DNA from: Amphiscolops sp. MND2022
Lineage: Eukaryota
Reading direction: 5' to 3'
Length of the DNA: 64,000 nt
NCBI GenBank assembly: GCA_964187785.1
Contig: OZ076409.1
Location: 71,488,001 to 71,552,000 of the forward strand
Shown here: in pieces, positions 1-29,909 of the stretch
Layout: the number at the start of each line of letters is the position of its first letter
How positions within the stretch are numbered: the stretch's first letter is position 1
Program-made: the position numbers and the translations under genes
Notes under the pieces: generated by a model
Told to the model about the DNA's origin: nothing
The model's database searches: none
What the model saw: the letters and a program-made list of their open reading frames with translations, nothing else

Positions 1-1993
1 CTATTTCCTGCTGACATTTTTTTGAAATTTTTGTGTACGTTTCCCCCCCGCCCCCTAAAGGGGTCAATTTTCCCCAATTTTGCACTTATGAGTCAATTTC
101 TCAAAACTGGTGTATCTGAGCGTCTTCCCGGCGGGGACAACTTTTAACAAGCGCTCTTCAGTAGACCTTTTGGACTTTTTACTTTGGTAGTACGTTCACC
201 CCCCAAGGAGGAAATGGCGTTTTTGTGACTTCCGGTGGAGACTTTTTTCACCCAAAAAATAGAAATAAGCCAGTTTTGAGCAGGAAGGAGTGGATTTAAA
301 GTGTCTGTACCCTGCTAAAAATTTGTTGGGCTTGTAGCGATATATCTCATACCAAGTCTGGTTTTCACCCCCAAACCCCCCTTGAGACCAAAATTCACCC
401 AAATTGTTTTACCTCTGTTTGTAGTTTTTTTGCAAAATGTCGTCATTTCCATGGGTAAGGCGTTGAATTAGGGACTCCTAATAGGGTACCAATGTTCAAG
501 TACACTTGCAGTGCAACTGAGTGACCCTTTTGGGGCCTCTCCTGTGTTCGGCAAGGACCGGAAGTGGTGTAAACCCCCCTTTTTTGACGTTTGTTGATCT
601 TGAGACTCGCGCTTAGATGACGTTTATGTCGCGCAAATCCTACAAACCAGTATTAGGATGACATGCTAGCCAACTAGAGAGCACTAAGGGAAACTATACT
701 ATACCGGAAGTAACCCCCCGTGACCGGAAGTTGTCATTTTTGACCGGAAATGGTCCAAAACATAGCGTAAAAGCAGTTTTTCATTGCTTTTAAAGTCAAC
801 TTATTACTTTTTTCACTCTGCGCGAGCGTGCCTTCAGGTTCGTTAGTGTTGCCCGTGCACACTGCAACAAATGTACATCTGTAAAATTTTCGCTATAATA
901 TCGTCGGAGAGAGAAATAACGGGTTTTTGGGATTTTTTTCAAAAATATTAGTCTTTATCTGTCATTTTTACCCAACGTTATTGAACAGTAGAACCACAGG
1001 GGTTAGTCTCTGCCCGATTATATGCCTAACAAAAGCATTTGTCCCATTGGTTGCAGTTTGAGCGTTCTAGCTTTGCCTGGTCACAAGTTAGGAGACTTGA
1101 AAAACTTTCAAAAACATTTCCGAAATTTTTTTCTAAACGTCACGTCTCCCAAAGTTAAGAAACTTCCTCACAACTAGGACTGCAAGTGAATGCATGTGGT
1201 AAGGCCTATAAATGGAAAGAAAAACTCCGTTTAGATTGTCTCTTTATCGTAACGTGACGTTAAGAGATGTTACTTTGAATGTGAGTTTGATAATGCGTCG
1301 AGAAGTAAAAGTGTGTAAATGGAACCTTTGTCTCGATAAATACCCATCGCAATACATGCGATGAACCCCAATTACCCTCAGTTTCAGTTGCTTAGTACAT
1401 CAACGTCTTCCAAGGACCTTTTATCTACTTTGAAAAGTGTCGAAATCATTATTAATATCAGTTATCAAGAAACACTTGAGTACATTCTCATCTCTCCCCA
1501 TCGGGTGAGATGAGAATGTTTTTGCTAAAAGTCAGGTACTACGGCCCCCTTTTGTTTTAATACGATGCATTCTCTGCTTTAGCACACAAATATTTTATTT
1601 CGCCTGATTGTGTGTATACTCTCTGACTTGTTGTTATAAATCTCCCGTCATTACTTTACATAAATATACACAAAAAATCATTATTGTCAACGCCACATAC
1701 ATTTAGACGCCCACCATTCCGTAGGTATGTCGAGGCATACCTTTCGATTACGTATGTCAAAACGCAAACGAGATAAAACCTGCTGAAAGTCTGAAACAGT
1801 GACAAACAATTTTGACTATTTGACATATGGTAGGTTTTAATATGGGAGTTACACATCACTGGCATTTCCCATCATTCCAGCTGACGTCCACATACCAACA
1901 TCAACGCCCACCGTCCGTGGGCATGCCGAGGCATGCCTTTCGACGACGTATGCCAACTTCTGTATATCTACACTCAATTGCGGTAGCGGCTAG
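1..1993 (+). mobile_element. Unit 1 (5'-truncated by window), probable ~2.18-kb class non-autonomous element related to unit 4
   Basis: Ends GCGGTAGCGGCTAG. Type-A palindrome at 1482-1519 and two copies of the subterminal block (1723, 1919). The 3' ~1.3 kb is similar to unit 4. TTCCTGCTGAC at position 5 lies ~180 bp into other units, implying a full length of ~2.17 kb. Confidence 0.7.
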
Positions 1994-1997
1994 GTGG
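1902..1997 (+). other. Representative conserved subterminal block plus junction: CAACGCCCACCGTC(C/T)GTGGGCATGCCGAGGCATGCCCTTCGACGACGTATG(C/G)C...GCTAG|GTGG
   Basis: Present at 22 of 25 unit ends (absent from the ends of units 9, 13 and 14). Contains the inverted repeat GGGCATGCC-GA-GGCATGCCC. Its function as a cis-acting end signal is inferred. Confidence 0.85.
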
Positions 1998-3397
1998 TCG
2001 GGTATTTTTTTTTACTCGTATATGACGTTTGCGAGGCTTTGGGGAGGGCCCCGTGCCGAGCCTGTTCCGAAAATCGCCACATGTAGAAATCTGGCACTAA
2101 AATGCGAGATCTCAAAAAGTAGCCGTTAGAATTCTCTGAAATTTTGCATGTGGCTCAGAATTAATGAGTAATGAAAAAGTGTAGGAGTGAAGGTTGCTGA
2201 AAAAATGGTCCTTGTTGCACTTTTTGCGCAATTTTTGTCTGATTGTTGCGTTTTTTATGTCATTTTCGACTTTTCAAGCAAAAAACTCATGGATGCTTTG
2301 TTCCTAGCGCATCAAGTGTGGAGTACGAAAAGTTGCAGCATCTCCAATTGCGTATGCTGAGAAATTTTGGTTGCCGTCGGGTTACCCCCCACAGAGGTAG
2401 AGGGGTACTTCCGGTTATTTTTGACCCCCTAAATTAGGTAAACTGCTAATTTTTGTAATGAAGCCGTAGATTTAGCGTGTCCGCACCCTGCTGAAGTTTT
2501 GTTAGGCATTTTGAGAGAGACCCAATGACATGTGTTCAGTTCACCACCCATCACCCCCTTGACCGGAAATGAACGTTTTTGTGCACTTTCAGACCGGAAG
2601 TCTCCATTTTCACCGGTAAGGAGGCCTTGTACGACCAACTAGCAGGACATCAAAATTGAAGTATAACCTAGGGTCAACTTAATGACCACGTGTTGTCCAG
2701 TCATGGGTTTCACTATGACCGGAAATGGGCTCAAAACCCCACTTTTAGTAGTTTTTTATCAATTTGAATAGTGTTTGGTCCACATTCAGGTGGCGTAAGT
2801 CACTTGCACCAGTGTGAGTATTAACTGCATGTTCACTGCGTAGACGTAACTGACACTGTCAGATACCGGAAGTAACCCCATGTGACCGGAAGTGGTCAAT
2901 TTTGACCGGAAATGGACCAAAAAGTAGCGTAAAAGCAGTTTTTCACTGCTTTTTAGGGACAATTTTTTACTTTTTTTTCAATCTGAATGCCTCCTTTATA
3001 CTACCAAAGCTAACATCGTTGCCTGTTTTGCTAAAGATTTGGCAATTGATTACCTTTATCAACCCCGATAGCCTTCCAAGTTGACCTTGAGTCAATCTTG
3101 AAGGCTATCTATACTTAAAACGAAAAATCGAGATAAGTTGTTTTCTCCATTACGTTGATATTTTTTCCTTGATGTCAAATTGTTGAGCAAAGACTTTTAA
3201 GCAAATTAATGATCTGAATCTTGTTCAGAGGTCTCACCCTGAGGAAGATTATTTGAGATTGAAGTAAACTGAGAATGAGGTTAGTATTTGTCAACATCAG
3301 AGAATCTTATCAACGCCCACCGTCTGTGGGCATGCCGAGGCATGCCCTTCGACGACGTATGCCAAATAGCGCCACAGGGCGCCCACACTTTTGCTAG
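1994..3397 (+). mobile_element. Unit 2, 1404-bp non-autonomous element
   Basis: Bounded by junctions 1989 and 3393. About 2100-2980 is similar to unit 4 (3670-4550). Type-B palindrome 3067-3109, subterminal block 3328-3347, small hairpin GCGCC-ACAG-GGCGC. Confidence 0.7.
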
Positions 3398-3545
3398 GTG
3401 GAGGTTATTATATATCAATTAAAGTGTTTTTTTCCGGAGTTTGCCTACTTGCCTACTTGCATCAACGCCCACCGTCCGTGGGCATGCCGAGGCATGCCCT
3501 TCGACGACGTATACCAAGATATACCTGGAGCGCGGTAGCCGCTAG
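3398..3545 (+). mobile_element. Unit 3, 148-bp minimal element (5' end plus 3' end only)
   Basis: First 46 bp are identical to the first 46 bp of unit 4 (3546-3591). Then (TTGCCTAC)2, subterminal block 3480-3499 and GCGGTAGCCGCTAG. Confidence 0.65.
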
Positions 3546-5723
3546 GTGGAGGTTATTATATATCAATTAAAGTGTTTTTTTCCGGAGTTTGTGGCTTTGG
3601 AAAAAACAAAAGGCGAGAAATTGGGCACTCCAGGCTGAACCTAAAAACACCCTAAAATTGGCCCGATTTTTTTACGATCTCGAAACCCAGCCGTACGATT
3701 TGGCTGAAATTTTGCATGTGGCTCCTAATCAATGAGTAATGAAAAAGTGTAGGAGTGACTTTTCCTGAAAAAATTGTTTTTGTTGCACTTTTTGCGCAAT
3801 TTTTGACCGATTGTTGCGTTTTTTATGTCACTTTTGACTTTTCAGGCAAAAAACTCATGGATGCTTTGATCCTAGCGCATCAAGTGTTTCGACCAAAAAG
3901 TTGCAGCATGTTCTTTTACGTATGTTGAGAAAATTTGGTTGCCATCGTATTACCCCCCACTGAGATAGAGGGGAACTTCCGGTGGAATTTAGGACCCTAA
4001 AAACGAGGACCTCCTAAATTTCAGCATGAAGCGGTAGTTTTAGCGTGCTCATACCCTGCTGAAACTTTGTTGGCCATAATGAGATAGTCATGATATCATG
4101 TGTTCAGTTCAACCCCCATCACCCCCTGGACCGGAAATGAACTTTTTTGTGCACTATCATACCGGAAGTCTCCAATTTCACCGTTAAGCAGTCCTTGTAC
4201 GAGCAACTACCAGGACATCAAAATTGAAAAACCACCTGAGGTCAACATAGTGACTACGTGTTGTCCAGTCATAGGTTCCGCTATGACCGGAAATGGGGTC
4301 AAAAGCCCCTATTTTGGTTGTTTTTTAACAATTTTACTAGTGTTTGGTCCACATTCAAGTCGCGTAAGTCAATTGAATCAGTGTGAGCAAAAACTGTATG
4401 TTCACTGCGTAGACGTAACTGACACTGGCAGATACCGGAAGTAACCCCCCGTGACCGGAAGTTGTCAGTTTCGACCGGAAATGGTCCAAAATGTAGCGTA
4501 AAACTAGTTTTTTACTGCTTTTTAAAGTCAACTTATTACTTTTTCAATCTCCGCGAGCTTGTAATCAGGTTCGTTTTTGTTACCCGTGCACTTTGCAACA
4601 AATATACATCTGTAAAAGTTTCTCTATAATATCGTCGGATAGAGAAATAACGTGTTTTTGGGACTTTTTTTCAAAAATATTAGACTATATCTGTCATTTT
4701 TACTCAAAGTTTTTCAACTGTACAACCACAGTATTTAGTCTCTGCCCAAATTTTTGCCTAACAAAACTATTTGGTCCATTGGCTTTAGTTTGAGCGTTCC
4801 AGCTTTGCGTGATCATAAGCTAAAGGACTTGAAAAATTTTCAAACTTTTTTCAAAAAAAACTTCTCACATTCATATCTCCCAAAGTGAAGAAACTTCCAC
4901 ACAATTAGGATTGCAAGTGGATGCACGTGGCAAGCCCTATAATTGAAGAGAAAAATGCCGCATAGAACGTCTCTTTATCGTAACTTGACGTTAACGTATG
5001 GTGCTTTGAATGAGAGCTTGATAAGAGGTCGAGAAGTCAAAGTGTGTAAATGGAACGTATTTCTCGTCGAAAACTCACCGGAATTCATGCAATGAACCCC
5101 AATTGTTCTAAATTGCAGTTGCCTACTGCAACAACGTCTTTCTGGTACATTTACCCATTTTCATAAGTGTCAAAATTATTTTTGAATTCAGTTAGCAAGA
5201 AACACTTGAGTACATTTTCATCTCTCCCAAGCGGGTGAGATGAGAATGTTCTTGCTAAAAGCCAGGTACTACGTCCCACTTTTGTTTTAATGCGACACAT
5301 CCTCTGCTTTAGCACATAGATAGTTTATTTTGCCTGATTTTTTGGATACTCTCTGACTTGTTATTATAAACTTCTCGTCATTACTTTACATGAATTTACA
5401 ACCATAAAGCGTTATCGTCAACTCCACATACATTTAGACGCCCACCATTCCGTAGGTATGTCGAGGCATACCTTTCGATTTCGTATGTCAAAACGCAAAC
5501 GCGATAAAAAGTGCTGAAATTCTGAAACAGTGATAAACAATTCTGACAATTTGACATATGGTAGGTTTTTATATGGAACTTAGACATCACTGACATTTCA
5601 CAACATTCCAGCTGACGCCCACATACCAACATCAACGCCCACCGTCCGTGGGCATGCCGAGGCATGCCCTTCGACGACTTATGCCAGTTATTTATATCTA
5701 CACCCAATTGCGGTAGCCGCTAG
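3546..5723 (+). mobile_element. Unit 4, 2178-bp non-autonomous element
   Basis: Bounded by junctions 3541 and 5719. ACCGGAA(G/A)T motif cluster, type-A palindrome ~5211-5249, duplicated subterminal block (5454 variant, 5650 canonical). Confidence 0.72.
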
Positions 5724-6992
5724 GTGGCCGTGTCTTTTCGACGTGCTTTTGCATCGAGGAGTGGGTAGGGCCCCGCGACGACCTAGAAGAATTGGATGCT
5801 CACCGAAACGTGCAGAATTCTACGAGATCTCATAGTTTGAGCCATACGATTTTTCTGAAATTTGGCATGTGGCCTGGAATTGGTGAGTAGGTAAAACGTG
5901 TAGGAGGTGATTTTTCCCAAATTCCACTGTGAGACGAGATATGGGCAAATAACGGTCCCAAAAATGGCAAAAATGCACTTTTTTCAACTTTGTCAGCCCA
6001 TATCTCGTTCCCAGGTGCCCGGAGCGGGACGCGTTAAGCTGATTATAAACTCTAGGGTGTTGAGGCTGTACGGGGAAGTCAGGCCCGTTCCGATCGGACT
6101 TGTAGTCTTGGAGAAATAACGGTATTTTTGGGGAACCTTTTCTAACGGTCCAGCTTATCTTTGCCATTTTTTCGAAAATGTACTCGCCTAAAGGCCTCCC
6201 CCTGGCCGAATTTACTCCCAGCAAAACCATTTGGCCCTAAATACGGAGTTTCAGCGTTCCAGCATTCCCGGGCGAAAAGTTGTGGGACTTGGAAAATTTT
6301 CAAAAATTTTCAAAAAAAATTTTTTTCGTATTCCGGGCCCCCAATGAAGGGGAAACGACCCCCCAACCAGTATTTTGAGTGAATTCATGTGGAAAGCCCT
6401 TGTTTTGACGAGAAAAATACCGTTTAGAACATCTTTTTATCTTGACTCAACGTTGACTTATGACGTTTTGAATGTGATGTAAGGATGTAGGAGGCATGTG
6501 ATAAGTTGATGTTTTGAGTCTTTATCTCATATGAAAGCGGTTGAGATGCAAGCTGTCCTGCTCAAAACGTCTTTCGTTGTAACTTTCCAGTGCACCAATA
6601 CCCTTTGGTGTCATATAAACATACTTTTTGTCGATATATTAACAATTTTAATGTATTTATTCCAATTTTTATTATCTTATAACTCAAAACAGTTGAGTAC
6701 ATTTCATCTCCCTTTCGGGGGAGATGAGAATGTACTCGCTAAAGACCTAGCGCCATGACCAAAAATTTGAAACTCACGTTTTTTATCTTCTTACAGACTT
6801 GTTTTTGTATTTTTTCGGAATTTTTTAAAAATTAATATACTTGAAATACATTACTTGACTTTACTACTACAACCCACCTCCAACGACAACGCCCCCCTGC
6901 TTGCATCAACGCCCACCGTCCGTGGGCATGCCGAGGCATGCCCTTCGACGACGTATGCCAAATGCCCAGTGCCACGCAGTCATTATCGCTAG
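5724..6992 (+). mobile_element. Unit 5, 1269-bp non-autonomous element (~1.27-kb class)
   Basis: Bounded by junctions 5719 and 6988. Type-A palindrome 6695-6737, block 6924-6943. Middle (~6190-6470) is similar to unit 6. Confidence 0.7.
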
Positions 6993-8264
6993 GTGGCCGC
7001 GTCTTTTTGATGGACTTTTATCCTTGAGGCGCGGGTAGGGTCCTGCGCCGAGCTGGTGAAAATATACTACGTCCAAATCGCCCGTTCCGGAAACGATCTC
7101 AAAACTGGCCCGTACGATTTTCCTGAAACTTTGCATGTGGCCCCCAATTGGCGAGCAATGAAAAAGTGTAGGAGGCCATTTTTCCCAAATTCCACTGTGA
7201 GAGGAGATATATGAAAAAAACGGACCCCAAAATGACGAAATTTTCACTTTTTGACCAAAAATGTGACATTATCTCCTCAGACAAGGCTCGGAGCAAAATT
7301 TGTCAGAACCCAAACCTGCAGCAGACTGTTAGAGCAGTGCACACAGTAAGTTCGAAGGAAATCGGATAATCACATGTTGAGAAATTGACGATTTTCCGAC
7401 AATTTTTTTTGCATTTGCAGTCTATCTCTGCCGTTTTTTGCCCAAAATTTTTTCGAGACCCTCTCCTAAAGACCTCCCCTGGCCGGTTTACCTCCCAAAA
7501 AAACCATTTGGCCCTAAATACGAAGTTTCAGCGTTTTAGCATTCCCCAGTAAAAAGTTATGGGACTTAGAACTTTTTCAAAAACTTTCAAAATTTTTCTA
7601 AAAAAGTTCAGGCCGCCCAAAGTGAAGAAACTTCCACACAACTAGTATTACAAGTGAATGCATGTGGAAAGCCCTGCACTTGACGAGAAAAATGCCGTTT
7701 AGAACGTCTTTTTATCTTAACTTGATGTTGACTTATGATCTTTTGAGTAGCGTATAACACGTGATCACAGTAGTGAAGATCCTAATTTTCAATAATTTTC
7801 GAACAATAACGCATGAAAAGAACCTGGAAAAGGTTCCGATGGGTCAGTTGGGATGTCTGAATCAAGTGTACATTCCCGTAGTGTATAGCGGATGTGTTTG
7901 GGACTTATTAGAAATTGTGATATATTTTATACAAGTCTTTGTTTCTCTTAGAATCTTATGCAGTTGAGTACATTCCATCTCCCTCTCAGGGGAGATGTGA
8001 ATGTACGTTTGCCAAATGCCTTGTAAAGCTGACAATTTTGATGGTATAAAATGATTAAACAAGTGTGACTAGCGTTTGCCGAATCACTGCAGCAAAAAAT
8101 CTTGAAACTTTAGTGAGATTGAATGCTTTTTGTCTCTAGTGTTTTTTCTTGTGTAGCCGACTTCCACATCCAAATATCAACGCCCACCGTCCGTGGGCAT
8201 GCCGAGGCATGCCCTTCGACGACGTATGCCAAATACCATATGCCACGCAGTCTTTCCCCGCTAG
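6993..8264 (+). mobile_element. Unit 6, 1272-bp element (near-identical to unit 15)
   Basis: Bounded by junctions 6988 and 8260. Near-identical to 29910-31183 but with different neighbours. Type-A palindrome 7968-8006. Confidence 0.78.
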
Positions 8265-10499
8265 GTGGGGGGGATATATCTCCACTTTTTTTGCGACCGC
8301 GGGTAGGGTCCTGTCGGGAGCTTCTATTTACCAAGCTTACGGCGCTATATACTAGAGAAAATTTTTCCGGCACCGAACTTTTTTTTGAACCATAGGAATT
8401 GTACCATTTTTTGCATGCGGCCCTAATTTGGGCATACAAGACGAAGTTCCTGCTGACGTTAAGCGATGGTTTCATTGTGTAACGAGATATAGCCACTTTT
8501 TGGTGCGAATTTTGAGGTATTTTTGAGAAGAATTTTACAAACAGCTCGAATGCAAAAAATTGAAAAACTTGTGACAATCGACCTATCACTGGTTTAAACC
8601 TTCGATTCTTTGCCCTAGCAATGCACTAGACCCAAAAGATCTAAAACTTTTACATTTTCCAAAAATTTGACCAAATTGACTCGGGTTTCACTACTATATG
8701 TAACCAATGTGACAAAAACACCTCAGAAAAAAATTTTCATTTGCTTAAATTTAGAAACCTTGGTATCCATGGTTTCTGTCGGAACCTACTCGCAGCCAAA
8801 CACTCAACAGTTTGCATCCAATGTGAATTTAAATTTTTTTTTCGAGGTCATAGGTGTTTCACAAGGATTTCACAACTTAGTTTCATATTACAAATTGGTC
8901 ATTTTCAACATCATATTTCCATCGAGGCATGTCGGATAGAGTCTTATTGCTCACGAACGGTCCTACTGGCAACGTGTTAACCATTTATAGAAATACAAAG
9001 TTATAAAAAAATTTTTCACCCGTTCTTCCATCATTTTTCAGACATTCGGAACTTATCTTAGAAAAATTTCGTCTCAAAAACCCATTTTTTGTCAGGTCGA
9101 AAACTCAAATTCAGCTTTTTAAGCACAATTATTAACTCTGACGTAACCAGTGGGGCCCATGATACTCAAAACAACGATTGGGGTTGGTACCATTGGCTCA
9201 AATAACATATGAGTCGCGATAAGACGTTATTTTTAGCCATACGTCTCAATTGAGGTAAACATCTCGCAAGCCAGGGATCTCTGTGAAATGTGATTTCATC
9301 AAAAAGTTACCCATTTTTGCAAATTACTATGTGCACAGAGTGCGTAGGGTGAGTTTCAGCACTATAATGAGGTTTTTGAAGGATTCGGGTTGCTCAAAGG
9401 GTGGTATGAGACATTTTTTTCCCATATACTACTGTATTTTCCAAAAATTTTAGCCCATTATCTGGAAAAACTAACTTGACAAAATACTTTCAGTTACTCT
9501 ATTCGAAGCTTAGAATATAGATGAACACTGTGGTTGATCAGAAACTATTAACTATTTTGTTTTTAGAAAAAAACTGCCTTGCATGTGTTACATTAGTGGC
9601 AGGAAAAATACCAGTAGCTCCAAAAATCAAAAATTTGGACGGACAGACTTCCAATGATGCAAAACAAAAACGTTTCAACAACTTCTGACGCCACTTTTTT
9701 TACCCAAGAGGTTCGAAAACACCATTAACAATGCTGACATTCGCAATAAATAAGATCGAGGTCTATTTACTAACACTTAGGTTTTAAATTTTTTTCTCGG
9801 AAACCCATTATTGTCAGGTCGCAAATTCAAATTTGGTTTTGGAAGCAATACTTTTCACTCTGAAGCAAACCGTTGGGCCCAAAATACTCAACAACAACAA
9901 AAAGACTATCACCATATGCTCTAATAACATATGAGATGCGACTGTATGTTTTTAACACAATAACTCTCATTCTGAAGTAAACATGTTGAAAGCCTTGAAT
10001 CACCGTGAGAAGTGATTTCATCAAAAAATATTTCTTTTTCGTCAATCACTAAATACACAGAACCCGTTGTGTTAGTTTCAGTCGTGAAATGAGGTTCTAC
10101 CGTAATATCGGCTGCTCAAGGTGTTGTATAAGGCAAAAACTTCCTCTTTTCTACTAACTTCTTCAAATATTTCAACCCTTTGTCACACGAAGTTAATATT
10201 CAAAATCTCTTTGAATTGTTTCTTAAGGTTGTGGTGAATTGTTAGAACAATTACTATGATCGAAGAATGCTAGTATTGGTGTTTGGACCATGTCCGGATG
10301 AACAAATCGCAAAATCAAGAAAAAATTGTTTCCTTTTTTGGTTATTTTGGCAGTACTAAAAATGTTAGCTGATAAATAATTTTTTCGAAGGCACCATTGG
10401 ATTCCGCTCAAAAAGTTGATTATAAGACATGTGTAATAACCCCGTATCTTTTCAATTTAGATAAATATAAAAAGCAAACTTTTTTGACGAAAATCCTAA

Positions 10500-11800
10500 T
10501 AATCATACCATTTCCTAAAAAATTTCAAATGCACTCCATTTGACGTATAAGAATAGCACAGAAAACTATCATATACCGATCAACTCTACTCCCATTGTAG
10601 ACTATTAGAATTTTGTTTTGATTGAATTTTGAAGAATATTAAAAAATTTTGAACCCTCCAAAAATGGACCAAAATTACACGAAAAAATTGACCTTAAAAT
10701 TTTAAAATGTCAAAAAATCATCAAAACCACAGCTTCTTGGGGTTCTATCAACTCCACGTGGTCCACAGAGTACGCTAAAACAGGTTTTACCCGTTTTTGA
10801 GCAATATGTGAAAAAGCCGACATTTTTGGGAAAGAAAAACATACCATTTCCTAAAATATTTCAAATGCACGCCATTTGCCGTATGAGAATAGCACAGAAA
10901 ACTATCACATACCGATCAACTCTACTTTCATTGTAGATGATTAGAAGTTAGTTTAAATGAAAATTAGACGGATAATAAAAAAATATAAATCCTCCAAAAG
11001 TGGGCAAAAATTACACGAAAAAATTGTCCTTAAAATATTAAAATGTCGAAAAATCATCAAAACCACAGCTTCTTGGGGTTCTATCAACTCCACATGGTCC
11101 ACAGAGTACGCTAAAATAGGTTTTACCCGTTTTTGAGCAATATGTGGAAAAGCCGACATTTTTGGGAAAGAAAAACATAACATTTCCTAAAAAAATTCAC
11201 ATGCACGCCATTTGGCGTATAAGAATAACACAGAAAACTATCATATACCGATCAACTCTACTCCTATTGTAGATTATTAGAACTTTGTTTTAAATGAATT
11301 TTGATGGATAATAAAAAATATTGAACCCTCCGAAAATGGGCTAAAATTGCACGAAAAAATTGACCCTAAAATTTTAAAATGTCTAAAAATCATCAAAACC
11401 ACAGCTTCTTGAGGTTCTATCAACTCCACATGGCCCACAGAGTATGCCAAACCAGGTTTTGCGCGTTTTTGAGCAAAATTTAGGAAAGCCGATTTTTTTG
11501 AGGAAGAAAAACATATCATTTCCTAAAAAACTTCAAATGCACGCCATTTGGCGTATAACAATAGCACAGAAAACTATCACATACCAATCAACTCTACTCT
11601 TTTTGTAGATTACCAGAAGTTTGCTTATAATAACTTTTGATGAATATTTATAAATTTTAAACCCTCCTAAAATGGGCCAAAATCACACGGAAAAATTGAC
11701 CCTAAGTATTAAAATGTCAGATATTCATCAAAACCCCAGCTTCTTGGGGTTCTATCATTTCCATATGACTTTCAGAGTATACCAAACAAGTTATTAACAT
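10500..11800. repeat. Internal tandem repeat, ~336-bp period, ~4 diverged copies
   Basis: CAT(A/T)(C/A)CATTTCCTAAAA-like anchor at 10504, 10840, 11176 and 11512. The same repeat occurs in units 12, 16, 18, 20 and 23. Confidence 0.9.
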
Positions 11801-12058
11801 TGGGCGATAATTAAAAAGACCAATTTTATTCTGAAGAAAACCATAATATGTTCAATATAAGAAGTGAATCATTCCACATATATACCCTGTCTAATATTCT
11901 AAATTAGCAAAAAAATATATACTTGATGTTTTTTGAATGTGAGCTTCATAAAAGGTTGAGATGTGATAATACGTAAATGGATTCCAAGTTTCATCGAAAA
12001 GTCAATGGAATACGTCCAATCAACTTCAATCTTAACAATTCGATAACAAAAAACACTT

Positions 12059-12100
12059 AAGTACATTCCATCTCCCTATCGGGGAGATGAGAATGTACTT
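12059..12100. other. Representative type-A internal palindrome AAGTACATTC-CATCTCCC...GGGAGATG-A-GAATGTACTT
   Basis: Long inverted repeat with one unpaired base. Seen in units 1, 4, 5, 6, 7, 10, 12, 15, 16, 18, 20 and 23. Confidence 0.85.
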
Positions 12101-19344: not shown

Positions 19345-22300
19345 GTGGGCGGGGGTAATTCCCCAACAAAAAAATCGGCCGGCGGGTCGGGTCCTGCCGG
19401 CCGTCCAAAATCAAAATTATACTAGTAGAAAACGGCCGGTCAAACGAGCTATTTTTTTATTTAACCGTTAGAATTTGGGTTTAGATTGCATGCGGCCATG
19501 AAATGGCCATACGAATCGAAGTTCCTGCTGACGTTTTGCGATTGAATCACTTTATAAAAAGTTATGGCCAATTTGTCATTCACCTAGAAGGGCAAAATGA
19601 GGAAAATTTTAACAAAGTCGCTGATAACTCAAAATGTAATAATTTTTGGACTTTGACAGTGAAACAAGCTTGGACCTGTCATTTCGTGGCTGTGGCATTG
19701 CACTGAACACAAAAGATGTAAAGTTTTCACATTTTTTGAAAATTCGACATTTTTGATTTTTTTTTCACTACTATCAGTACACTATATGTCAAAAACGCCT
19801 CTGAAAAAAATTTTTATTTGCTTAAAATTAGAAACATTGGTATCCATGGTTTCCGTCAGTACCTACTCGCTGCCAAACGCTCAACAGTTTGCATACAATG
19901 TGAAAATATAATTTTTTTCGAGGTCATAGGTGTTTCACAAGGATTTCTCAACTTAGTATCTATTTACAAATTGGTCATTTTGAACACATTATTTTCATCG
20001 AAGCGTGTCAGATACCACCCTAATGCTCACGAATGGGCCTACTGGCAACGTTGGAACCATTTTTAGTAATAGAAAGTATTAAAAAAATATTTTCACCCGG
20101 TCTTCAGTCATTTTTCAGACATTCGGTACTTAACTTAGAAAAATTTCGCATCAAAAACCCATATTTGGTAGGGTCGAAATTTGAAATTCAGTTTTTTATG
20201 CAAAATTATTAACTCTGACGTAACCAGTGGAGCCCATGATACTCAAAAACACGATTGGGACTGGTATCAGTGGCTCCAATAACATATGAGCCGCGATAAG
20301 ACGTTATTCAGAGCAAACGCTCTAAATCGAAGTAAACATCTCTGAAGCCTGGGATCACAGTGAAATGTGATATCACCAAAAGTTTACTCTTTTTTGTCAA
20401 TCACTATGTACACAGAGTGCGTAGGGTGAGTTTCAGGACTATAATGAGGTTTTTGAAGTAATCGCGCTGCTCAAGGGGTGGTATGAGACTATTTTTTCCC
20501 ATATACTACTACATTTCCATAAATTTGCAGTCCATTGTCTTGGAAAGATAAATTCACAAAAACAATTTTTCTACTCTATTCAGTTATTAGAATAAAGTTG
20601 ATTACTGTGGTTGATCAGAAATGCTCAATTCTTTTGGTTTTTAAAAAAATTCCTTCGCATTCGTTACATTTGTGGAAGGAAGGTTATCAGTAGCTCCAAA
20701 AAAAACGAAATTTAGCACGAACAGACATGCAACGATGCAAAGCAAAAACGTTTTTACAACTTCCGACGTCATTATTTTACCCAAGAAGTTCGAAAATATC
20801 ATTCGCAATGCTGTCATTCGCTATATATACGATCGCGGTCAATTTACAAACATTTAGATTTCATTGTTATGCTTGAAAACCAATTTTTGTCAGGTCGAAA
20901 TTTTAAATTTTGCCTGGGGAGCAATACCCTTCACGCTGAAGTAAACAGTGGGGCCCAAGTTACTCAAAAACAAGAAAGAGACTGCTACAATATGTCCTAA
21001 TAACATATGGACCACGATAGTACGTTTTTCCTACAAAAAACTCTCATCCGAAGTAAATATGTTGAAAGCTTTTAATCACCGTGAGAAGTGATTTCATCAA
21101 AAAATAACTATTTTTTGTCAATCACTATTTACACAGAATTTGTAAAGTTAGTTTGAGTCATGAAATGAGGCTTTACCGTAATATGGGTTGCTCAAGGTGT
21201 TATATAAGACAAAAACTTCCTCTTTTCTACTAGCTTCTTCAAATATTTCAACCCTTTCTCACAATAAGTTAATATTCAAAATCTCTTTGAAATGTATCTT
21301 TATGTTGGGGTGAAGTCTAAGAACAATAACTATGATCGAAGAATGCTAGTACTGGTGTTTGAACCATGTCCGGATGAACAAATCACAAAATAATCAAAAA
21401 ATTGTTCCCTTTTTTGGTTATTTTGGCAGTACTAAAAATGTTAGCTGATAAATAATTTTTTCGATGGCACCATTGGATTCCTCTCAAAAAGTTGGTTATA
21501 TGACCTGTGTAATAACCCCGTATCTTTTCAATTTGAATATATTTAAAAAGCCAACTATTTTGACCAAAATCCTAAAAATCATACCATTTCCTAAAAATTT
21601 TCAAATGCACCCCATTTGACGTATTAGATAAGCACAGAAAACTATCATATACCGATCAACTCTACTCCCATTGTAGATTATTAGAATTTTGTTTAGAATG
21701 AATTTTGATGGATATTTAAAAAATTTTGAACCCTCCAAAAATGGGCCAAAATTACACGAAAAAATTGACCTTAAAATACCAAAATGTCAAAAAATCATCA
21801 AAACCACGGCTTCTTGGGGTTCTATCAACTCCGCGTGGTCCACAGAGTATGCTAAAACAGGTTTTACCCGTTTTTGAGCAATATGTGAAAAAGCCGACAT
21901 TTTTGGGAAAGAAAAACATACCATTTCCTAAAAAAATTCAAATGCACGTCATTTGCCGTATTAGAATAGCACAGAAAACTATCACATACCAATCAACTCT
22001 ACTTTCATTGCAGATGAACAGAATTTTGTTTAGAATAAATTTTACCGGATAATAAAAAATATTTGAATCCTTCAAAAATGGGCCAAAATTACACGAAAAA
22101 TGGACCTTAAAAATTTAAAATGTCAAAAAATCATCAAAACAACAGCTTCTTGGGGTTCTATCAACTCCACGAGGTCCACAGAGTATGCTAAAACAGGTTT
22201 TACCCGTTTTTGAGCAATATGTGAAAAAGCCGACATTTTTGGGAAAGAAAAACATACCATTTCCTAAAAAAATTCAAATGCACGCCATTTGCCGTATGAA

Positions 22301-24105
22301 AATAGCACAGAAAACTATCACATACCAATCAACTCTACTTTCATTGCAGATGAACAGAATTTTGTTTAGAATAAATTTTACCGGATAATAAAAAAAATTG
22401 ATTCCTTCTAAAATGGGCCAAAATTACACGAAAAAATGGACCTTAAAATTTTAAAATGTCAAAAAATCATCAAAACCACGGCTTCTTGGGGTTCTATCAA
22501 CTCCACGTGGTCCACAGAGTATGCCTAACCCGGTTTTACCCATCTTTGAGCAAAATGTGAAAATACCGACATTTTTGGAAAAGAAAAACATGCCATTTTC
22601 TAATAAATTTCAAATGCACGCCATTTGCTGTATGAGAATAACACAGAAAGCTGTCACATACCGATCAACTCTACTTCCATTGTAGATTATCAGAAGTTTG
22701 TTTAGAATAAATTTTGATGGATAATAAAAAAAATTGAATCCATCAAAAATGGGCCAAAATTACACGAAAAAATTGACATTAAAATATCAAAATGTCAAAA
22801 AATCATCAAAACCACAGTTTCTTGGCGTTCTATCAACTCCATATGATACCAAACCAGGTACTGCCAATCGTTTGGGTTATAATAAAAAAACGTCTTTTTT
22901 GGCAAGAATTCCATACCATAAATAATAATCATGTTCCATATAAGAAGCGAATCATTTCAGATATATACCCTGTTCATTTTTTTAATATTACCGATTATTA
23001 ATTTAATAGATGTTTTGAATGTGAGCTTCCTAAAAGGTTCAGGTGTGATGATACGTAAATAGAACCTTAGTTTCATCGAAATCTCAATTGAATATGTCCA
23101 ATCTTAACCATCAGATAACAAGAAACACTTAAGTACATTCCATCTCCCCATCGGGGGAGATGAGAATGTACTTTCGAGAAGCCAAATACGTCCAACATTC
23201 AAACTTTTGTAACTTTGTATGTAACTCCTGAAACGAAGAAGGAATAAAATTGTTTCTGGTACATACATGAGTCTTTACTTCAGCTTCTATTTCTGCTGAA
23301 CAAAACCATTCGACTCTTTTACCGGAGTTAAGATCGATTGTTTTACCCAGTGAACAAAGGCATGACTGAAAACGTTTACTACTTTGTTCATAATTTTCCG
23401 GCCTTCCGAAATGATGAAACGTCCACATAACTAAGATAGCAAGTGAATGACTGCGAAATGCACCTTATTAGATGAGGTAAATAACGTGTAAAACTCTCCT
23501 TTATCCTAACATGAGGTTGAGTAATGATCATTTGAGAATAGTTTGATATGTGAATACAATAGTATAAAACAAGTACATTTTATATGAATAACGCCGTGGA
23601 AAGCGTTCAGAAAGGACAGTAGGCTTGTTTGGAACATGTATGTGTGGTGTCCCTTGGTGGCGTTCGCTTAGTGTATATGTCGAGGGGTATTCGAGTTGTT
23701 ATGATAGAATTTACACACAAGTCTTTTGTTTTTTGGTTTTTTTAAAATGTCGTTAAGTACCTGCATTCTATCCCCTTCTCAGAGATGACGTGAAGTTACG
23801 TTTGCTAAATAAATGTCATCGAAAGATCACACTCCCGACGAAATTAACTATCTTAACACGTGTTTAGAATTTTAAATAAACAACCGTATAAGATTTTTAT
23901 ATTTCATTGAGTTTGATGAAGTCTTTTGTTCTTCTCACTACTATTTCAACCAATACACATATCCGTTACCATATCACATGTCTCCTTTAGTACAACGCCA
24001 CATAGCGTTCCGACGCCCACAGTCTGTGGGCATGCCGAGGCATGCCCTTCGACGACGTATGGCAAATGGAGCCATGCCCGCCGTCTTTACGGCGGTAGCG
24101 GCTAG
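19345..24105 (+). mobile_element. Unit 12, 4761-bp element (near-identical to unit 18 and most of unit 16)
   Basis: Junctions 19340 and 24101. ~336-bp internal repeat ~21580-22870, type-A palindrome ~23131-23173, terminal hairpin CCGCCGT-CTTT-ACGGCGG 24078-24095. Confidence 0.78.
21580..22870. repeat. Internal ~336-bp tandem repeat of unit 12
   Basis: Recurrent CATACCATTTCCTAAAAA...GGTCCACAGAGTATGC module with anchors 21580 and 21917. Confidence 0.88.
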
Positions 24106-25175
24106 GTGGTCAAGGGGGATGCCCATCAGAAAATATTGCGAGGCCGGGGAGGGTCCCGATTGCCGAGCACATTATATCAATTCCTACCTTCAGGATTGCG
24201 AAGTATTTTAACCGATCTCGAAATTCACCCGTAGGATTTGGCTGAAACTTTGCATGTGGCTTTATCTCAAAAATTTAAGAACTTTTTTCTGCTGACGTTT
24301 TTCCAGGAAAATTCATTTTGTAGGGTTTTTTTGCGTTTTTTTGGTTTTTTTCATCTTTTTTCATCTTTGATTAATCAATGACCGAATCAAAGGCCATTTT
24401 CACCATGAAGGAAAGCCCGTAGCGGCAAAGTGCACTTTTATGAAAATCATCAACGGTCAACGGTCTTTCGAACGGTCCAAAAAAATTTCCCCCCGGGGGC
24501 AACCAAAATGCCGAAAAATGCCAAAATTAATTTTTTGACTGAATCACTTTGATCAAAATGATGATTTGAGCAGCCGGAACGGTCCGCACGGTCTCGGACG
24601 AAAAGGTCAAAAATTGTCAGCATCCATTGGGGGTTCCAAAAATGTAATTCGTTCACCTGTAGGAGACATCAGAAAAAAGTTGATTTTTTGGGGTATATGT
24701 CATTATGAGTGATTGGATGAGAAAAAAATGTATCACTTTCAGTTGGATATGATGCAGCACAGCAAGCAGCTGCAGCAAACTTGAAACTGATTATGGGGCT
24801 GGGGTTTACCCTCTGTATCAAGCAAAATAGCCCTAGGGCATAAGTTGTGCCAAAAAATGCCTCAAAGTGATGATTAAGTTATTGCAAACCGATTAGCAAA
24901 ATTTATTGTCACCGGTGTTCCGAGAGTTGCGCAGCATCTCGCAGGAACAACGGTGCTTGGTTAGAAAGCAAAAAACCACAAAATCCCTTGAGTTAAGTTG
25001 ACGGCAGTCACCATGGACATTCACTCGTCAGGGTGATGATATTTATCGTTCAATCCCAGAATAACTTACAAAAAATTGGTAGCCTCAATATTTCTTTTTC
25101 ATACTCCATTAGCAAAGGTTGCGCTGTTCAGTTTAGGCCTTTTACTAGCAGTGCTCTAAATCGCTCCATCGCTAG
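24106..25175 (+). mobile_element. Unit 13, 1070-bp element with alternative 3' end
   Basis: Diverged copy of unit 9. Junctions 24101 and 25171. Type-C palindrome 24910-24955. Confidence 0.75.
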
Positions 25176-28100
25176 GTGGTTGGGGCGTTATTCCCCACGA
25201 AGTTCGCGGCCGCGGGAGACGGGACCCGCGGACCGCCCATCCAATGCAAAAATATACACTCTAAACAGCACCATTATAAACACGATCTCGAAAATGAACC
25301 GTAGGATTGTCTTGAAATTTTGCATACGGATAGAAGCAAAAATTCTAAGAACTTTTTCCTGCTGGCACTTTTCCGAAAAAAACGTCCTTCATGGGTTTTT
25401 TTGGGTTTTTTTGGTTTTTTCTCATCTTTCTCATCTTTGATTAATCAATCACCGAATCAAATGCCATTTTCAGCATGAAGGAATGCACGTAGCGGCAAAG
25501 TGCACTTTTACAAAAATCATCAACGGTCAACGGTCTTTCGAACGGTCTAAAAAAATTTCCCCCCGGGGGCATGCAAAGTGCCGAAAAGTGCCAAAATATT
25601 TTTTTGGTCTGAATCATTTTGATGAAATTGTTGATTTGAGCAGCAGGAACGGTCCGCACGGTCTCGGACCATAAGGTCAAAAATTGTCAGTGAGTTATGG
25701 TGACGTCCAAAATGACATTGGTTGAGCTGTAGGAGGCCTCTGAAAAAATTTGAATTTTTTGAGTCTACAATCCGAGCTGAACTGTTACGTATTATGAACT
25801 TTTCAGTACTATGTTGCCAAAGACCGAGTACAGATAGGTGCATGGGTCAGCCTTATTGAAATGAACATTGGGCACTGGGCTAACGATTGAGTGCAAAAAT
25901 TATAGCCTAGTTGCTGTAGTCGAAGAAAAAAATTCTCAGAAGTGTTACTTTCAATTTGTCATGTTGACTCGGAGTTACAAAAAGATGATTTTCTCGCCAA
26001 CAACGGTCCGAACGGTCTTGGACCATAAGATCAAAAATTGTCAGTGTGCTATGGTGACGCCCAAAAACCCATCGGAACAAGCGTAGGATGCTTCTGAAAA
26101 AATTTCGAATTTTTACCTCGGCCCAAGAGTTATTGTGTTACATCGTAACAACATTTCGTGTATGCATATCTCCTGACAGCGTACAGATAGCATCATGGGT
26201 CACCTTTTTGAAAGTGAACGTGGGCCACTGGTGTACTGCATGGTTATAAAAAATTTAGACTAAGTGCTGCATGGCGTGAATAATATGCCAAGATGTGGTA
26301 TTTACGATATTTTAGCACGACTCGGACTGACAAAAAGCCTATTTCTGCCCCAGCAACGGTCCAAACGGTCATCAAGTATAAGGTCAAAAAATGTCAGTGT
26401 GACATTATGGCGCCTAAAAACCTACCAGAATAATCGTAGGAAGCTTCTGAAAAAATTTTGAATTTTTACGTGGGCCCGAGAGTTATGATGTTGCATCGTA
26501 GCAACATTTCGGGTATGCATATCTCCCTACAGAGTACAGATAGCATCATGGGTCACCTTTTCGAAAAAGAACGTGGGCCACTGGTCTATCGATTGGTTGT
26601 AAAAAGTTTTCAATCACTGCTGCACGGCGTGAATAAAATGCCAATATGGGATATTTAGCATTTTTTTGCACGACTCGGACCTACAAAAGTCTCATTTCTG
26701 CTCCACCAACGGTCCGTACGGTCTTCAACCATAAGGTCAAAAAGTGTCAGTGTGCTATGGTGACGCCCAAAAACCCAACAGTACACTTGTAGAGTGCTTC
26801 CGAAAACTTTTGGAATTTTTAGGTGAGTCCGAGAGTTATAGAGAGTTATGTTGTCACATGGTAACTACATTTCGGGAATGTATATCTCCTGACACAGTAC
26901 AGATACCAACATGGGTCATCTTTTGGAAAGTGAACGTGGGCCACTGGCCTACCGAATGGTGATAAAAAGTTTTCACCAGTTGCTACAGGGAGTGATAAAA
27001 GTGCTTACATAGTTTACATAGCATTTTTTCAGGCGACTCGGACTTACAAAAAGCTCATTTGCTAGCGAACAACGGTCTGTACGGTCTCCACTCAATGGGT
27101 CGAAAATTTTTTGTGGGCTATGGTGACGCTCAAAAACCCATCAGTTTACTTGTGGGATGATTCTATAAAAATTTAGTGTTTTCGTGCAGACTATGTTACA
27201 TATTACATTAGGAACCGTGTTTTTTTCTCACCAAAATCATGTTTTTGAGTGCCCAAAAGCAATTTTTAAAGCCCAGTAGCCACCTAAAATGTTCTTTTGC
27301 ATAACATGGGATGTGAATAACGTCAAGAAAGTGCTCACTATGGATTTGGAGTTATCTCGAAAAAATCAGCTGCCATTAGACGTTACATTACAGAAAATCG
27401 TACCTTACATATCGATTCATGGGTTGAGTCAAAAACAGCTAAAGTTCTTTTTCAGTCAATCAATACTGTTTTTTGTTCACAACCAAGTGTACAGCTGACT
27501 TCGAAGCTATTTTGACCTTCCACAATGGTTATAATGCGATTTTGAGGGACAAAAGGCTTGTTGACAAACAAAATTCCAAGATGAAATTGCTTTCCAAATC
27601 ATTTTTTGAAGTATAGGAACGCCATTTTTTGCCGACAACCATCAAATATCCACTTCTCTTGGCCCAGGGGCTTGTGAAAAATACAACTGAGCCTTGACAA
27701 GGCACATGGACCGTAATTCGAGTAGTCATGTACCACAACATTTGCTAATCGATAGCAACTTTTGTTGAAAATTGATACAACATCACATTTTTGGTGAACT
27801 CGAAATGACAAAATGGAGCTTTACCAGAAACTATTGGCTTTTAGTACAACTCACTGGCACTGTAAGTTACGAAAATACGGTTTACAGTAGTTTCATGCTA
27901 CTTTTTCAGAATCTGAGGTACATAAAAATATCATACTGAATAGACAAATAACTTCAACATCGGAATTTTTCCGGATGTGTCACCACCTTTTTGGTATCAG
28001 CGGTCCTACCAACACTGCTTTTGGTCTAACACTAAACCCAAGGATCAACCAAGATGTATATCAGACTTGTAAAATCAATGCAAGGTCTTTCGACATGTCA

Positions 28101-29909
28101 AAAGTACTGATAAGATGAGAATCTTCTCAAAAATTCATGTTATGTGTCATATTCCATTCCACGTTTTTTAATCGGTGCTTGTCGGTTATAGTATTAACGC
28201 TCAACAACGAGCTTACTGACAAGAAACAACTTGTTAACAGTTATTAAAAGTATGTATAATTCCACCATGCTCGGTCTTGGCAGATTTTTCATCCCATTAG
28301 TTCTTAACGTGTAAATTTTACTTCCCAAAAACCCTATTTTTGTCAGGTCGAAATTCGAATTTTCGTGTTTTGATCAATATTATTGTGTCTGACGTAACCT
28401 GTGGCCTCCAAAATACTCAAAAACAATAGTATGACTGCTATCAAATGCTTCAGTGACATGTGGGGCACGTTAACACGTTTTGGTAAGAAAAATTCCACTT
28501 CGAAGTGAAAATTTGGAAGACACATTGTGTCAATAAAAACTGAATACATGAAAAACGTACCTAACTCCCGTCAATTAGTATTGACGTAGTAACTGTGTTG
28601 CGAATTAGAGGTCTATAGAGTGGTGTATGGGAAAACTGTGGCGCATAAAGCGTTGTTCATAACAAAGTTCTTCCAATAACTACAATTGTGTTTTCAAAAG
28701 TTTCACTATATTTCACATATTCACAGAATGTGATTGATGCTACCTAGTAATGGAAAACCACTGTCGAATGTTCTTTAGTGGACTCAACAGTCCTGAAAAT
28801 CACAGACATACATCACGATTCATAATTATACACTCGAGGCTACACAGTAATTTATTTCCGCTAGTTGCTGATAACTGAATTTCCTGATAGCCTTCCAAGT
28901 TGGCCTTGTGTCAACCTGGGAAGGCTATCAGTACAAAACACAAAGAACACAGCTTGTTGTTGCCTCTAATTTGCTGTTGTTTTCGTTAAGATTTTATGGT
29001 ACCGTTTCTTTATAACATGTGGTTAACATAAGACAATTTCTCTCTGTATGGAACGACATCCATTGATAAGAAAGATTACAGTTTTTAGTTGAAAAAGACC
29101 TTGAAACTACTGCGCAATCCATGTAATTTATCCAAAACGTTCATTCATTTCAATAATTTGCGTCCCATTGAGCGTCACAAACCACTATACCTCCTTTAAC
29201 TGACAGTACAAAGACACATCATCCTTTGACCGTCCACAGACCGAAGGCGTGGCGAGGCACGCCTTGCGAAGACCTTTGGCAAAACAGTACTAACGTCCGT
29301 TCGTGACGCATACGAAAAACTATTTTATTTTCAACAATCGTCATAAAGCATATTTGTTATATCGGCCTTTCGTTACATTTGTGCAATGATACCTTTATCA
29401 GTGAAATATTAAGTTATACATAGGTAACTGCAGTAACTTCGTGATAACCAAAGTGATATCAAAATGTTGTTACATAAATATTTCTGACACAGCGGAATTC
29501 CGAAGTGTCATTAGGCACTTTTTCAGTGCTCGTTAGGAAAGCGAGCACTTTTGCTTGGACCAAACATGCTCGTATCAGACTGGTCATGTGAAGGCAAGTA
29601 ACGGAATCGAAACAATGTTCCTCATCAACTTTTTGGTAGCGTCAGAAACACAATGTTTCCTTTTTAATGTCCCCCAGTTGTTTGTTAGCTTCTGTTCATA
29701 GAGAATTGTTTCTGCGCAGACCAAAATATAGCAAGTTATCCAATACGCCTAATAACGGATTTGCCCCACACAGAACTATCACTTAACATTTTTGTATGTT
29801 GACATCTTTTTACCCCGTTGTTCAACAACTCATGCACCTTCATTTCTTCTTCAACAACTAACTCGCCACCTCCTTGTCGTCTCGTGGTTTGTTTAGCCTC
29901 CAGCGCTAG
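25176..29909 (+). mobile_element. Unit 14, 4734-bp element, largely distinct sequence with its own internal repeat and 3' end
   Basis: Junctions 25171 and 29905. ~25280-25700 resembles units 9/13. ~354-bp internal repeat, type-B palindrome 28884-28931, displaced variant block 29244-29265. Ends TAGCCTCCAGCGCTAG. Confidence 0.68.
25640..27180. repeat. Internal tandem repeat, ~354-bp period, ~4.3 diverged copies
   Basis: AACGGTC..(A/T/C)ACGGTC anchor at 25648, 26002, 26355, 26708 and 27071 (spacings 354, 353, 353, 363). Confidence 0.85.

Follow-up and report, generated by a model that had tools for sequence, protein, structure and literature searches.

The window analyzed here, a stretch of 64,000 nucleotides from Amphiscolops sp. 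MND2022 (assembly GCA_964187785.1, contig OZ076409.1, positions 71,488,001 to 71,552,000 of the forward strand), consists over its whole length of a head-to-tail mosaic array of non-coding units that share one orientation, meet at an identical 9-base junction, GCTAGGTGG, and in most cases carry a palindrome shortly before their right end. The array continues past both edges of the window. Cutting at the junction 9-mers yields 26 units (U00 to U25) of 148 to 4,776 bp, the first and the last being truncated by the window. The unit limits at the 9-mer, the single orientation, the shuffled order of the units, their hairpins and their lack of coding capacity were read directly from the DNA. We favor, at about even chances, the reading that these units are non-autonomous rolling-circle DNA transposons of the Helitron-like, HUH-endonuclease kind that target their own ends.

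Units are exchanged within a 9-base junction

The 9-mer GCTAGGTGG occurs 25 times on the plus strand of the window and not once on the minus strand, with 0.06 occurrences expected under an order-2 Markov model. Every complete unit is flanked by identical copies of it, and at all 25 junctions CTAG is followed by GTGG. Half of the units (13/26) can be sorted into six groups, the members of each being near-identical over their full length, and members of the wider 2-kb and 4.76-kb families are 82 to 99% alike; the remaining units have little in common outside their ends. Near-identical units sit beside different neighbors. Since none of the 25 neighboring pairs is of the same subtype and no ordered pair recurs, the array is not a simple concatemer.

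Among 22 pairs of junctions with the same spacer after the palindrome, the upstream units are of one type in 20 and the downstream units in 8, the latter against a background of 73 of 209; the spacer goes with the upstream unit and is independent of the downstream one. Units are therefore exchanged within GCTAGGTGG, which is too short for homologous recombination. The exchange point lies 41 to 53 bases past the palindrome, which is therefore not where the DNA is cut; its center had been a candidate and was rejected because the spacer travels with the upstream unit.

One related locus, L001, was retrieved in a metagenome scan. Its junction is GCGAGGTGC (L001 860-905), with CGAG replacing CTAG and GTGC replacing GTGG, so that only GCnAGGTG is common to the window and L001. 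The CGAG at this junction has the same four letters as the invariant center of the palindrome.

The palindrome keeps its pairing while its sequence changes

The first-pass annotation had described a subterminal palindrome with compensatory changes and had quoted four forms of it, all of which were found in place. Exact matches, all of them on the plus strand, number 20 for the canonical 20-mer and 22 for its 16-base core; a profile search brought the total in the window to 25 copies and turned up no relics beyond these. Together with the L001 copy there are 26 copies in five forms, and the central CGAG is, as had been claimed, invariant in all of them. The placement at unit ends holds for 22 copies, whereas those at 1723, 5454 and 29245 lie inside units (Table 1).

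In the 26 copies, the outer pair is G-C in 20, A-T in 5 and G.T in 1; pair 4 is C-G in 24 and T-A in 2, and pair 5 is A-T in 25 and G-C in 1. The innermost pair, number 8, is C-G in 23, T.G in 2 and G.G in 1; the T.G and G.G combinations occur in the deep variants and are uncompensated. Four of the eight stem pairs never vary and three change on both sides. Among 20 distinct 60-mers, 159 of 160 cells pair. In shuffles of these 60-mers, 2 of 500 reached three doubly changed pairs and 0 of 500 the covariation score, figures that are inflated by the relatedness of the rows. A lineage simulation, which assigned 2, 3 and 3 substitutions to three assumed lineages and took no account of the one-sided change at 1919, gave P = 7e-5 with random bases and 0.0026 with transitions only (0.0045 and 0.040, respectively, when the outer pair was left out). 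A tree of the 57-base block minus the palindrome was too poorly resolved to count outer-pair changes. The pairing-preserving signal is real, yet it comprises only about three independent events. Compensatory change thus stands for three pairs, beyond the level of shuffled sequences, and does not extend to the innermost one.

The surrounding block is indeed the most conserved part of the junction region: its 57 bases have a mean identity of 0.90 among 10 representative ends, versus 0.49 to 0.62 in five neighboring 57-base windows. It is 96% identical in L001, the body of which is about 69% identical to the nearest unit. What survives of the proposal that the palindrome is selected as a hairpin, cruciform or symmetric dimer-binding site for the mobilizing enzyme is a conserved subterminal signal of a mobile unit, the symmetry of which outlasts sequence change; it is not the break point, units being exchanged at GCTAGGTGG. 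The canonical palindrome folds at -9.9 and -10.1 kcal/mol on the two strands and, folding equally on both, does not decide between them. Each arm (e.g., in 5650-5669) is itself an 8-base palindrome, GGCATGCC, which also makes the site a direct repeat whose period is 10 bases. Further copies of AYGCC stand about 20 and 40 bases before the palindrome and 28 bases after it.

Further hairpins and a possible folding strand

There are four hairpins per unit, the palindrome being one of them. A terminal hairpin with a stem of 5 to 8 bp lies 6 to 11 bases before CTAG in 14 of the 22 palindrome-bearing ends and is weak in the 3 ends that lack a palindrome. Among the distinct palindrome-bearing end spacers, 7 of 14 fold better than shuffled sequences (p <= 0.02) and 7 do not; in 8 aligned ends, three pairs changed on both sides, and the score was reached by 3 of 500 shuffles. 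This hairpin of variable sequence before CTAG looks like a Helitron terminator. At the other end, a left-end hairpin motif follows 23 of the 25 junctions and is also present in L001, and its covariation (four doubly changed pairs) was reached by 0 of 500 shuffles; the L001 left hairpin has 28 bases in common with U05. Most units also contain, 200 to 340 bases upstream of the palindrome, an internal hairpin of one of two alternative types. For type 1, covariation was not significant (275 of 500 shuffles, with two rows misregistered). U11, U15 and U17 contain a second, degenerate internal hairpin about 625 bases past the first.

Over three hairpins and the palindrome, the plus strand has G.T at 8 pair positions and A.C at 1 (p = 0.04), a weak sign that it is the folding strand; the rows are related, only three of them are terminal-hairpin rows, and internal hairpin 2 and the hairpin-1 form of U00 and U03 are omitted.

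Table 1. Coordinates of the features discussed, counted from the first nucleotide of the window
Feature	Position	Strand	Remarks
Junction 9-mers GCTAGGTGG (25, identical)	1989..62180 (starts 1989, 3393, 3541, 5719, 6988, 8260, 13029, 15012, 16081, 17356, 19340, 24101, 25171, 29905, 31179, 35955, 37949, 42711, 44699, 49462, 51449, 53432, 58197, 60182, 62172)	+	
Terminal palindromes (22)	1919..62118 (20 canonical, starts 3328, 3480, 5650, 6924, 8195, 12957, 14945, 19273, 24028, 31114, 35882, 37876, 42638, 44632, 49390, 51382, 53365, 58125, 60115, 62099)	+	41-53 bases before junction
Terminal palindrome, A-T outer-pair variant	17287	+	
Terminal palindrome, G.T half-change	1919	+	Absent from the first-pass annotation
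Conserved 57-base right-end block (example)	5630..5686	+	Upstream CGCCCAC motif, palindrome 5650-5669, downstream conserved 16-mer
Variant palindrome inside U00	1723..1742	+	About 246 bases before junction, 196 before canonical-type copy; 216 from internal hairpin (usual)
Same variant inside U03	5454..5473	+	About 245 bases before junction
Most diverged palindrome, inside U13	29244..29265	+	About 640 bases before junction; 324 from internal hairpin (usual)
Terminal GC-rich hairpin (U11)	24078..24095	+	6 bases before CTAG; sequence varies by unit type, pairing kept
Further terminal hairpins	37926-37943, 49439-49456, 62149-62166; 14987-15004		14987-15004 at 8 bases from CTAG
Left-end hairpin	7028..7049 (U05); 19376-19403 (U11)	+	About 40-60 bases past junction; loop conserved, stem variable
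Internal bulged hairpin, type 1	6695..6737 (U04)	+	About 200-250 bases upstream of palindrome in short units; conserved
Internal hairpin, type 2	3067..3109 (U01), 28886 (U13), 2-kb family	+	Where type 1 is absent
U08	15012..16080	+	Ends at junction without palindrome block or internal hairpin
U12	24101-25170	+	89% identical to U08; likewise without palindrome block and internal hairpin
U02, 148-bp mini-unit	3393..3540	+	First 51 bases of a U03-type left end fused to right-end block
336-bp internal tandem repeat, 4.76-kb family	10504..11757 (example)	+	Six such arrays
353-bp tandem repeat (U13)	25966-27144		
Array	1..64000	+	Continues past both window edges

Internal palindromes and ends without a palindrome

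The three copies that lie inside units are the carriers of the two inner compensated changes. The copy at 5454 is not independent of that at 1723, U00 and U03 being about 85% identical. The palindrome at 1723 is probably a superseded end, as judged by its normal distance to the internal hairpin, and all three deep copies, standing at normal distance from internal hairpins, are like superseded ends. Between the most diverged palindrome and its junction lie 640 bases of unique sequence (29266-29904), which look like a flank captured by read-through. Conversely, 3 of the 25 junctions, at the ends of U08, U12 and U13, have no palindrome nearby, so that the palindrome is not strictly required there. 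In the last 30 bases of U08 and U12, the terminal GCTAG can pair weakly with an upstream CTAGC (about -2 kcal/mol).

Comparison with known mobile elements

In the way it works the element is most like a Helitron, yet it lacks features that define Helitron1 and Helitron2 (HLE1 and HLE2, defined as in PMC11417382; here and below, a PubMed Central [PMC] number refers to the passages of that source that deal with the point at hand). As in Helitron1 elements such as Helraiser, the presumed 3' end is CTAG, in many cases with a GC-rich hairpin about 6 to 11 bases before it, terminal inverted repeats (TIRs) are absent, right ends are more conserved than left ends, and there are signs of end bypass and of new ends. 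Where Helitron1 has a 3' CTRR, all 25 window junctions have CTAG and L001 has CGAG, and the hairpin placed about 10 to 12 nucleotides before the Helitron1 3' end stands here at 6 to 11 nucleotides in 14 of 22 ends and is weak or absent in 8. In contrast, the units start with GTG (GTGG in 25/25) and not with the 5'-TC of Helitron1, and no window junction shows insertion between A and T, the neighbors being joined as CTAG directly followed by G. Also unlike Helitron1 are the extra, invariant palindrome block 41 to 53 bases inside the end and the stacking of mixed families over more than 64 kb.

The non-autonomous elements of the Helitron2/Helentron group (HINE, DINE-1, Cg_HINE and FoHeli) likewise have hairpins at both ends and internal tandem repeats, here of 336 and 353 bp. 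Each end indeed has its hairpin, the left one after 23 of 25 junctions and the palindrome before 22 of 25. There is also a weak, Helentron-like inverted match, without covariation, between the start of a unit and a motif about 70 bases before its end. The asymmetric TIR of 11 to 17 bp typical of Helitron2 was not found among 15 distinct units, the mean complementarity of 7.5/12 being that of shuffled pairings (p = 0.44); a covarying TIR of this kind, prompted by one fold, was accordingly dropped. Nor is there a target between two Ts: the junctions are GCTAGGTGG, the flanks are not T-rich, and the ends are CTAG.

The bacterial IS91 family (Y2 HUH) resembles the units in its subterminal palindromes, a target tetranucleotide like the terminator, read-through and the lack of target duplication, and differs in being bacterial, autonomous and dispersed; the window contains no IS91 transposase. 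With Crypton and CryptonV elements the units share a short terminal direct repeat (4 to 6 bp in Cryptons, here the common 9-mer), the lack of a TIR (best inverted match 4-8 of 15 bases) and possible target specificity, but they have several hairpins of the single-strand type, no recombinase gene in the window and no microsatellite targets. Replitrons belong to the HUH elements; they have short terminal direct repeats and a hairpin at the right end, insert in a specific orientation and show read-through into the flank (PMC10288648). The window units also have such repeats and a right-end hairpin, whereas Replitrons, as that source describes them, are dispersed, target RG and have fuzzy ends in Chlamydomonas; here, junctions are exact, arrays are long and the window contains no Rep gene. 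Telomere-targeting Helitrons of Paramecium are target specific, uniformly oriented and accompanied by satellite-bearing non-autonomous derivatives (PMC13085455). According to that account they insert into telomeric repeats and end in CCAA, whereas no telomeric repeat lies between the window units.

A proposed self-targeting rolling-circle model

We infer the class of the enzyme, the strand that would be transferred, a cut after CTAG, and a role of the palindrome as a right-end recognition or pausing signal. An enzyme encoded elsewhere would nick the left end after CTAG, where the unit starts with GTGG, and the plus strand would be peeled off. The conserved right-end block with its palindrome would then be recognized, and transfer would stop at the terminal hairpin with a cut after CTAG; the palindrome would thus act 41 to 53 bases from the cut without being the nick site. 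Joining of the copy after the CTAG of an existing end-to-start junction would recreate two identical junctions, and the array would grow in one direction and in random order. Read-through past old ends could account for the three internal palindromes and for the ends without a palindrome, and we count the relic palindromes at normal distance from an internal hairpin in favor of this model, along with the exchange of units at the junction, the terminal and left-end hairpins with their two-sided changes, and the excess of G.T over A.C pairs on the plus strand.

Several steps have precedents. In Helraiser, the hairpin lies 11 nucleotides before the CTAG end and can be bypassed, which yields new ends; the left end of the element, in contrast, is indispensable (PMC4778049). 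Helitron-like elements have conserved right ends and diverse left ends (PMC11417382), as do the window units. Internal tandem repeats of 100 to 500 bp are typical of non-autonomous Helentrons (PMC7492417), which bear internal satellites (PMC7492417, PMC4067079). Self-insertion and tandem copies of Helitrons have been reported (PMC5148889). In the IS91 family, the target tetranucleotide is equal to or like the termination site (PMC13181058), which is a precedent for self-targeting.

A number of observations weigh against the rolling-circle model. There is neither a 5'-TC nor a target between A and T or between two Ts, and L001 has CGAG/GTGC instead of CTAG/GTGG. Eight of the 22 palindrome-bearing ends have no good terminal hairpin, yet they end at the same base, and the strand bias is weak. 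The 9-mer being common to all ends, the data do not fix which bond within it is cut. Of 36 GCTAG sites on the plus strand, 11 lie uninterrupted inside units, so that bare GCTAG is insufficient as a target. The junctions are exact in 25 of 25 cases, which would fit a recombinase equally well, and the absence of identical neighbors is close to chance expectation (about 0.6 by our own arithmetic) and excludes concatemers only. Finally, a Pfam scan of 50 window reading frames showed no transposase gene or remnant.

The main rival, which we hold to be rather unlikely, is a Crypton-like mechanism in which a tyrosine recombinase would excise direct-repeat-bounded units as circles and integrate them at identical junctions, the palindrome being an accessory dimer-binding site on double-stranded DNA. 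The 4- to 6-bp terminal direct repeats of Cryptons, without TIRs (PMC3212892), and the target specificity of some CryptonV families (PMC8869645) fit it, as do the precision of all junctions and the AGGTG shared by the window and L001. A palindrome arm also recurs downstream as a partial direct repeat, one position of which co-changes in the deep variants, but this repeat does not track the arm in U11, U16, U24 and L001. A recombinase site of two inverted 11- to 13-bp arms around a 6- to 8-bp spacer was not found at the window junctions (best mean complementarity 0.37, shuffled 95th percentile 0.37), and the several variable-stem hairpins and strand-biased wobble pairs suggest single-strand recognition; a recombinase gene is lacking in the window. 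HUH chemistry on the minus strand, which we judge unlikely, would make the palindrome block the origin and the plus-strand left end the terminator. Only then could the palindrome be the origin, which is one of the two roles (origin or recognition signal) that the first-pass annotation had thought probable. It is true that the block of highest conservation is usually a mark of the essential end, that oriIS of IS91 has subterminal palindromes (PMC13181058), that the minus-strand junction tetranucleotide (CTAG in the window, CTCG in L001) has T at position 2 as in IS91 sites, and that small hairpins lie just within many left ends. However, the block is missing at that end in three units and lies deep inside three, which would require extension beyond the origin, and the wobble pairs lean to the plus strand.

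The plus-strand wobble pairs would fit RNA as well as single-stranded DNA, and the units could be hitchhikers of non-long-terminal-repeat or Penelope-type elements, with a transcript that folds into the hairpins and is inserted at its own junction. This is quite improbable: the window contains no Rfam family, ribozymes included, and no tRNA, no poly(A) or simple-repeat tail precedes the junctions, and 5'-truncated units number 0 among 25 left ends. It is also very improbable that the palindrome is an element-borne response element of the host p53 family, unrelated to cutting, an idea that would be compatible with the other readings. Among the 22 copies tested, the canonical and A-T forms match the two-decamer RRRCWWGYYY (consensus and transposon-borne p53 sites in PMC3485254) at 19 of 20 positions, but the single mismatch, at position 10, does not vary among the 26 copies, and a fixed distance to a junction would be unexpected for a p53 site. 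Moreover, the form at 1723 and 5454 loses core C4 and G17 yet stays symmetric, and that at 29245 has four mismatches, although all of these variants are internal relics. Least probable of all is that the symmetric changes are a mutational by-product in a satellite-like array homogenized by recombination, without selection. Hairpins can be corrected by template switching, the events are only about three and all transitions, and P rises to 0.04 without the outer pair. On the other hand, block identity is 0.90 next to flanks of about 0.5, the 57 bases are 96% identical in L001 despite a body at about 69%, and the exchange takes place downstream of the block at a 9-base site too short for homologous recombination.

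Coding content and occurrence elsewhere

The window has no long reading frame, the longest stop-free frame being 171 amino acids. The Pfam scan covered 50 of the 52 stop-free frames of at least 75 amino acids that start before 31200 (122 such frames are present in the window) and returned no match at the cut-off and two sub-threshold matches. Targeting of tRNA genes in the manner of Dada elements, an idea prompted by what we take to be a faint likeness of the junction to a tRNA D-arm, was rejected, as the array contains no tRNA.

Exact-pattern scans gave no match in viral contigs or prokaryote genomes, phage records gave none, and a metagenome scan that required the window's own junction also gave none; a second metagenome scan retrieved L001. 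One public sequencing run contains 13% of the window words. Contigs from this run (12 records) reach, with low depth, 23 of the 30 bins into which 6600-8420 was divided; the palindrome in them is unchanged and they contain no joints. They show the presence of the family only. No RNA sequencing run was among the matches listed in the word search. The divergence of copies, L001 and these low-depth contigs argue against an assembly artifact. The satellite-bearing, non-coding make-up and the lack of pattern matches among prokaryotes and viruses suggest a eukaryotic host. A full-text literature search found no description of the element, and a string search found no paper with the palindrome plus another search term; Repbase, Dfam, subscription journals and supplements lay outside the search, so that the family may be catalogued there.

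Implications

Known Helitron-like elements insert at dinucleotides scattered across the genome. Tentatively, and with more doubt than belief, we suggest that the array represents an undescribed eukaryotic lineage, the enzyme of which would read single-strand hairpins and insert copies precisely at the end-to-start junction of related elements. Many families would in this way accumulate in integron-like cassette arrays that extend for tens of kilobases or more, with the palindrome block as the key that gives otherwise unrelated cargo units access to one enzyme, and such arrays could form chromosomal structure (heterochromatin, a centromere or a chromosome end). If so, a eukaryotic element would follow a new targeting rule, by which kilobases of cargo are attached at a precise 9-base junction in one fixed orientation and no sequence is duplicated, and transposons could in this way give rise to large, complex satellite arrays. 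Since covarying subterminal hairpins are nothing unusual in transposons of this kind, the palindrome by itself is only modestly interesting; the unusual part is the exact self-targeted stacking of many families. With end signals known to the base, a search for the enzyme can go by way of a coding element with the same ends. Should this partner be an ordinary Helitron or Crypton already in Repbase, the result would amount to no more than an account of its non-autonomous ends.

Other features of the array

The 148-bp U02 may be near the minimal mobile unit. The right half of the window (31179-64000) consists of 2-kb and 4.76-kb units only, the diverse unit types being found in the left half, and array growth may thus have proceeded in stages. 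The 4.76-kb units (8260-13028 and others) contain nested duplications, with a 722-bp internal repeat and four 336-bp repeats. About 120 to 180 bases past the junctions (e.g., 7110-7140), a conserved motif CGTAnGATTT ... TGCATGTGG is present in most left ends and partly in L001; it resembles the conserved core of animal non-autonomous Helentron-type repeats. U00, U01 and U03 (window 1-5000) carry clustered, numerous copies of a CCGGAAGT/CCGGAAAT motif that is presumably ETS-like.

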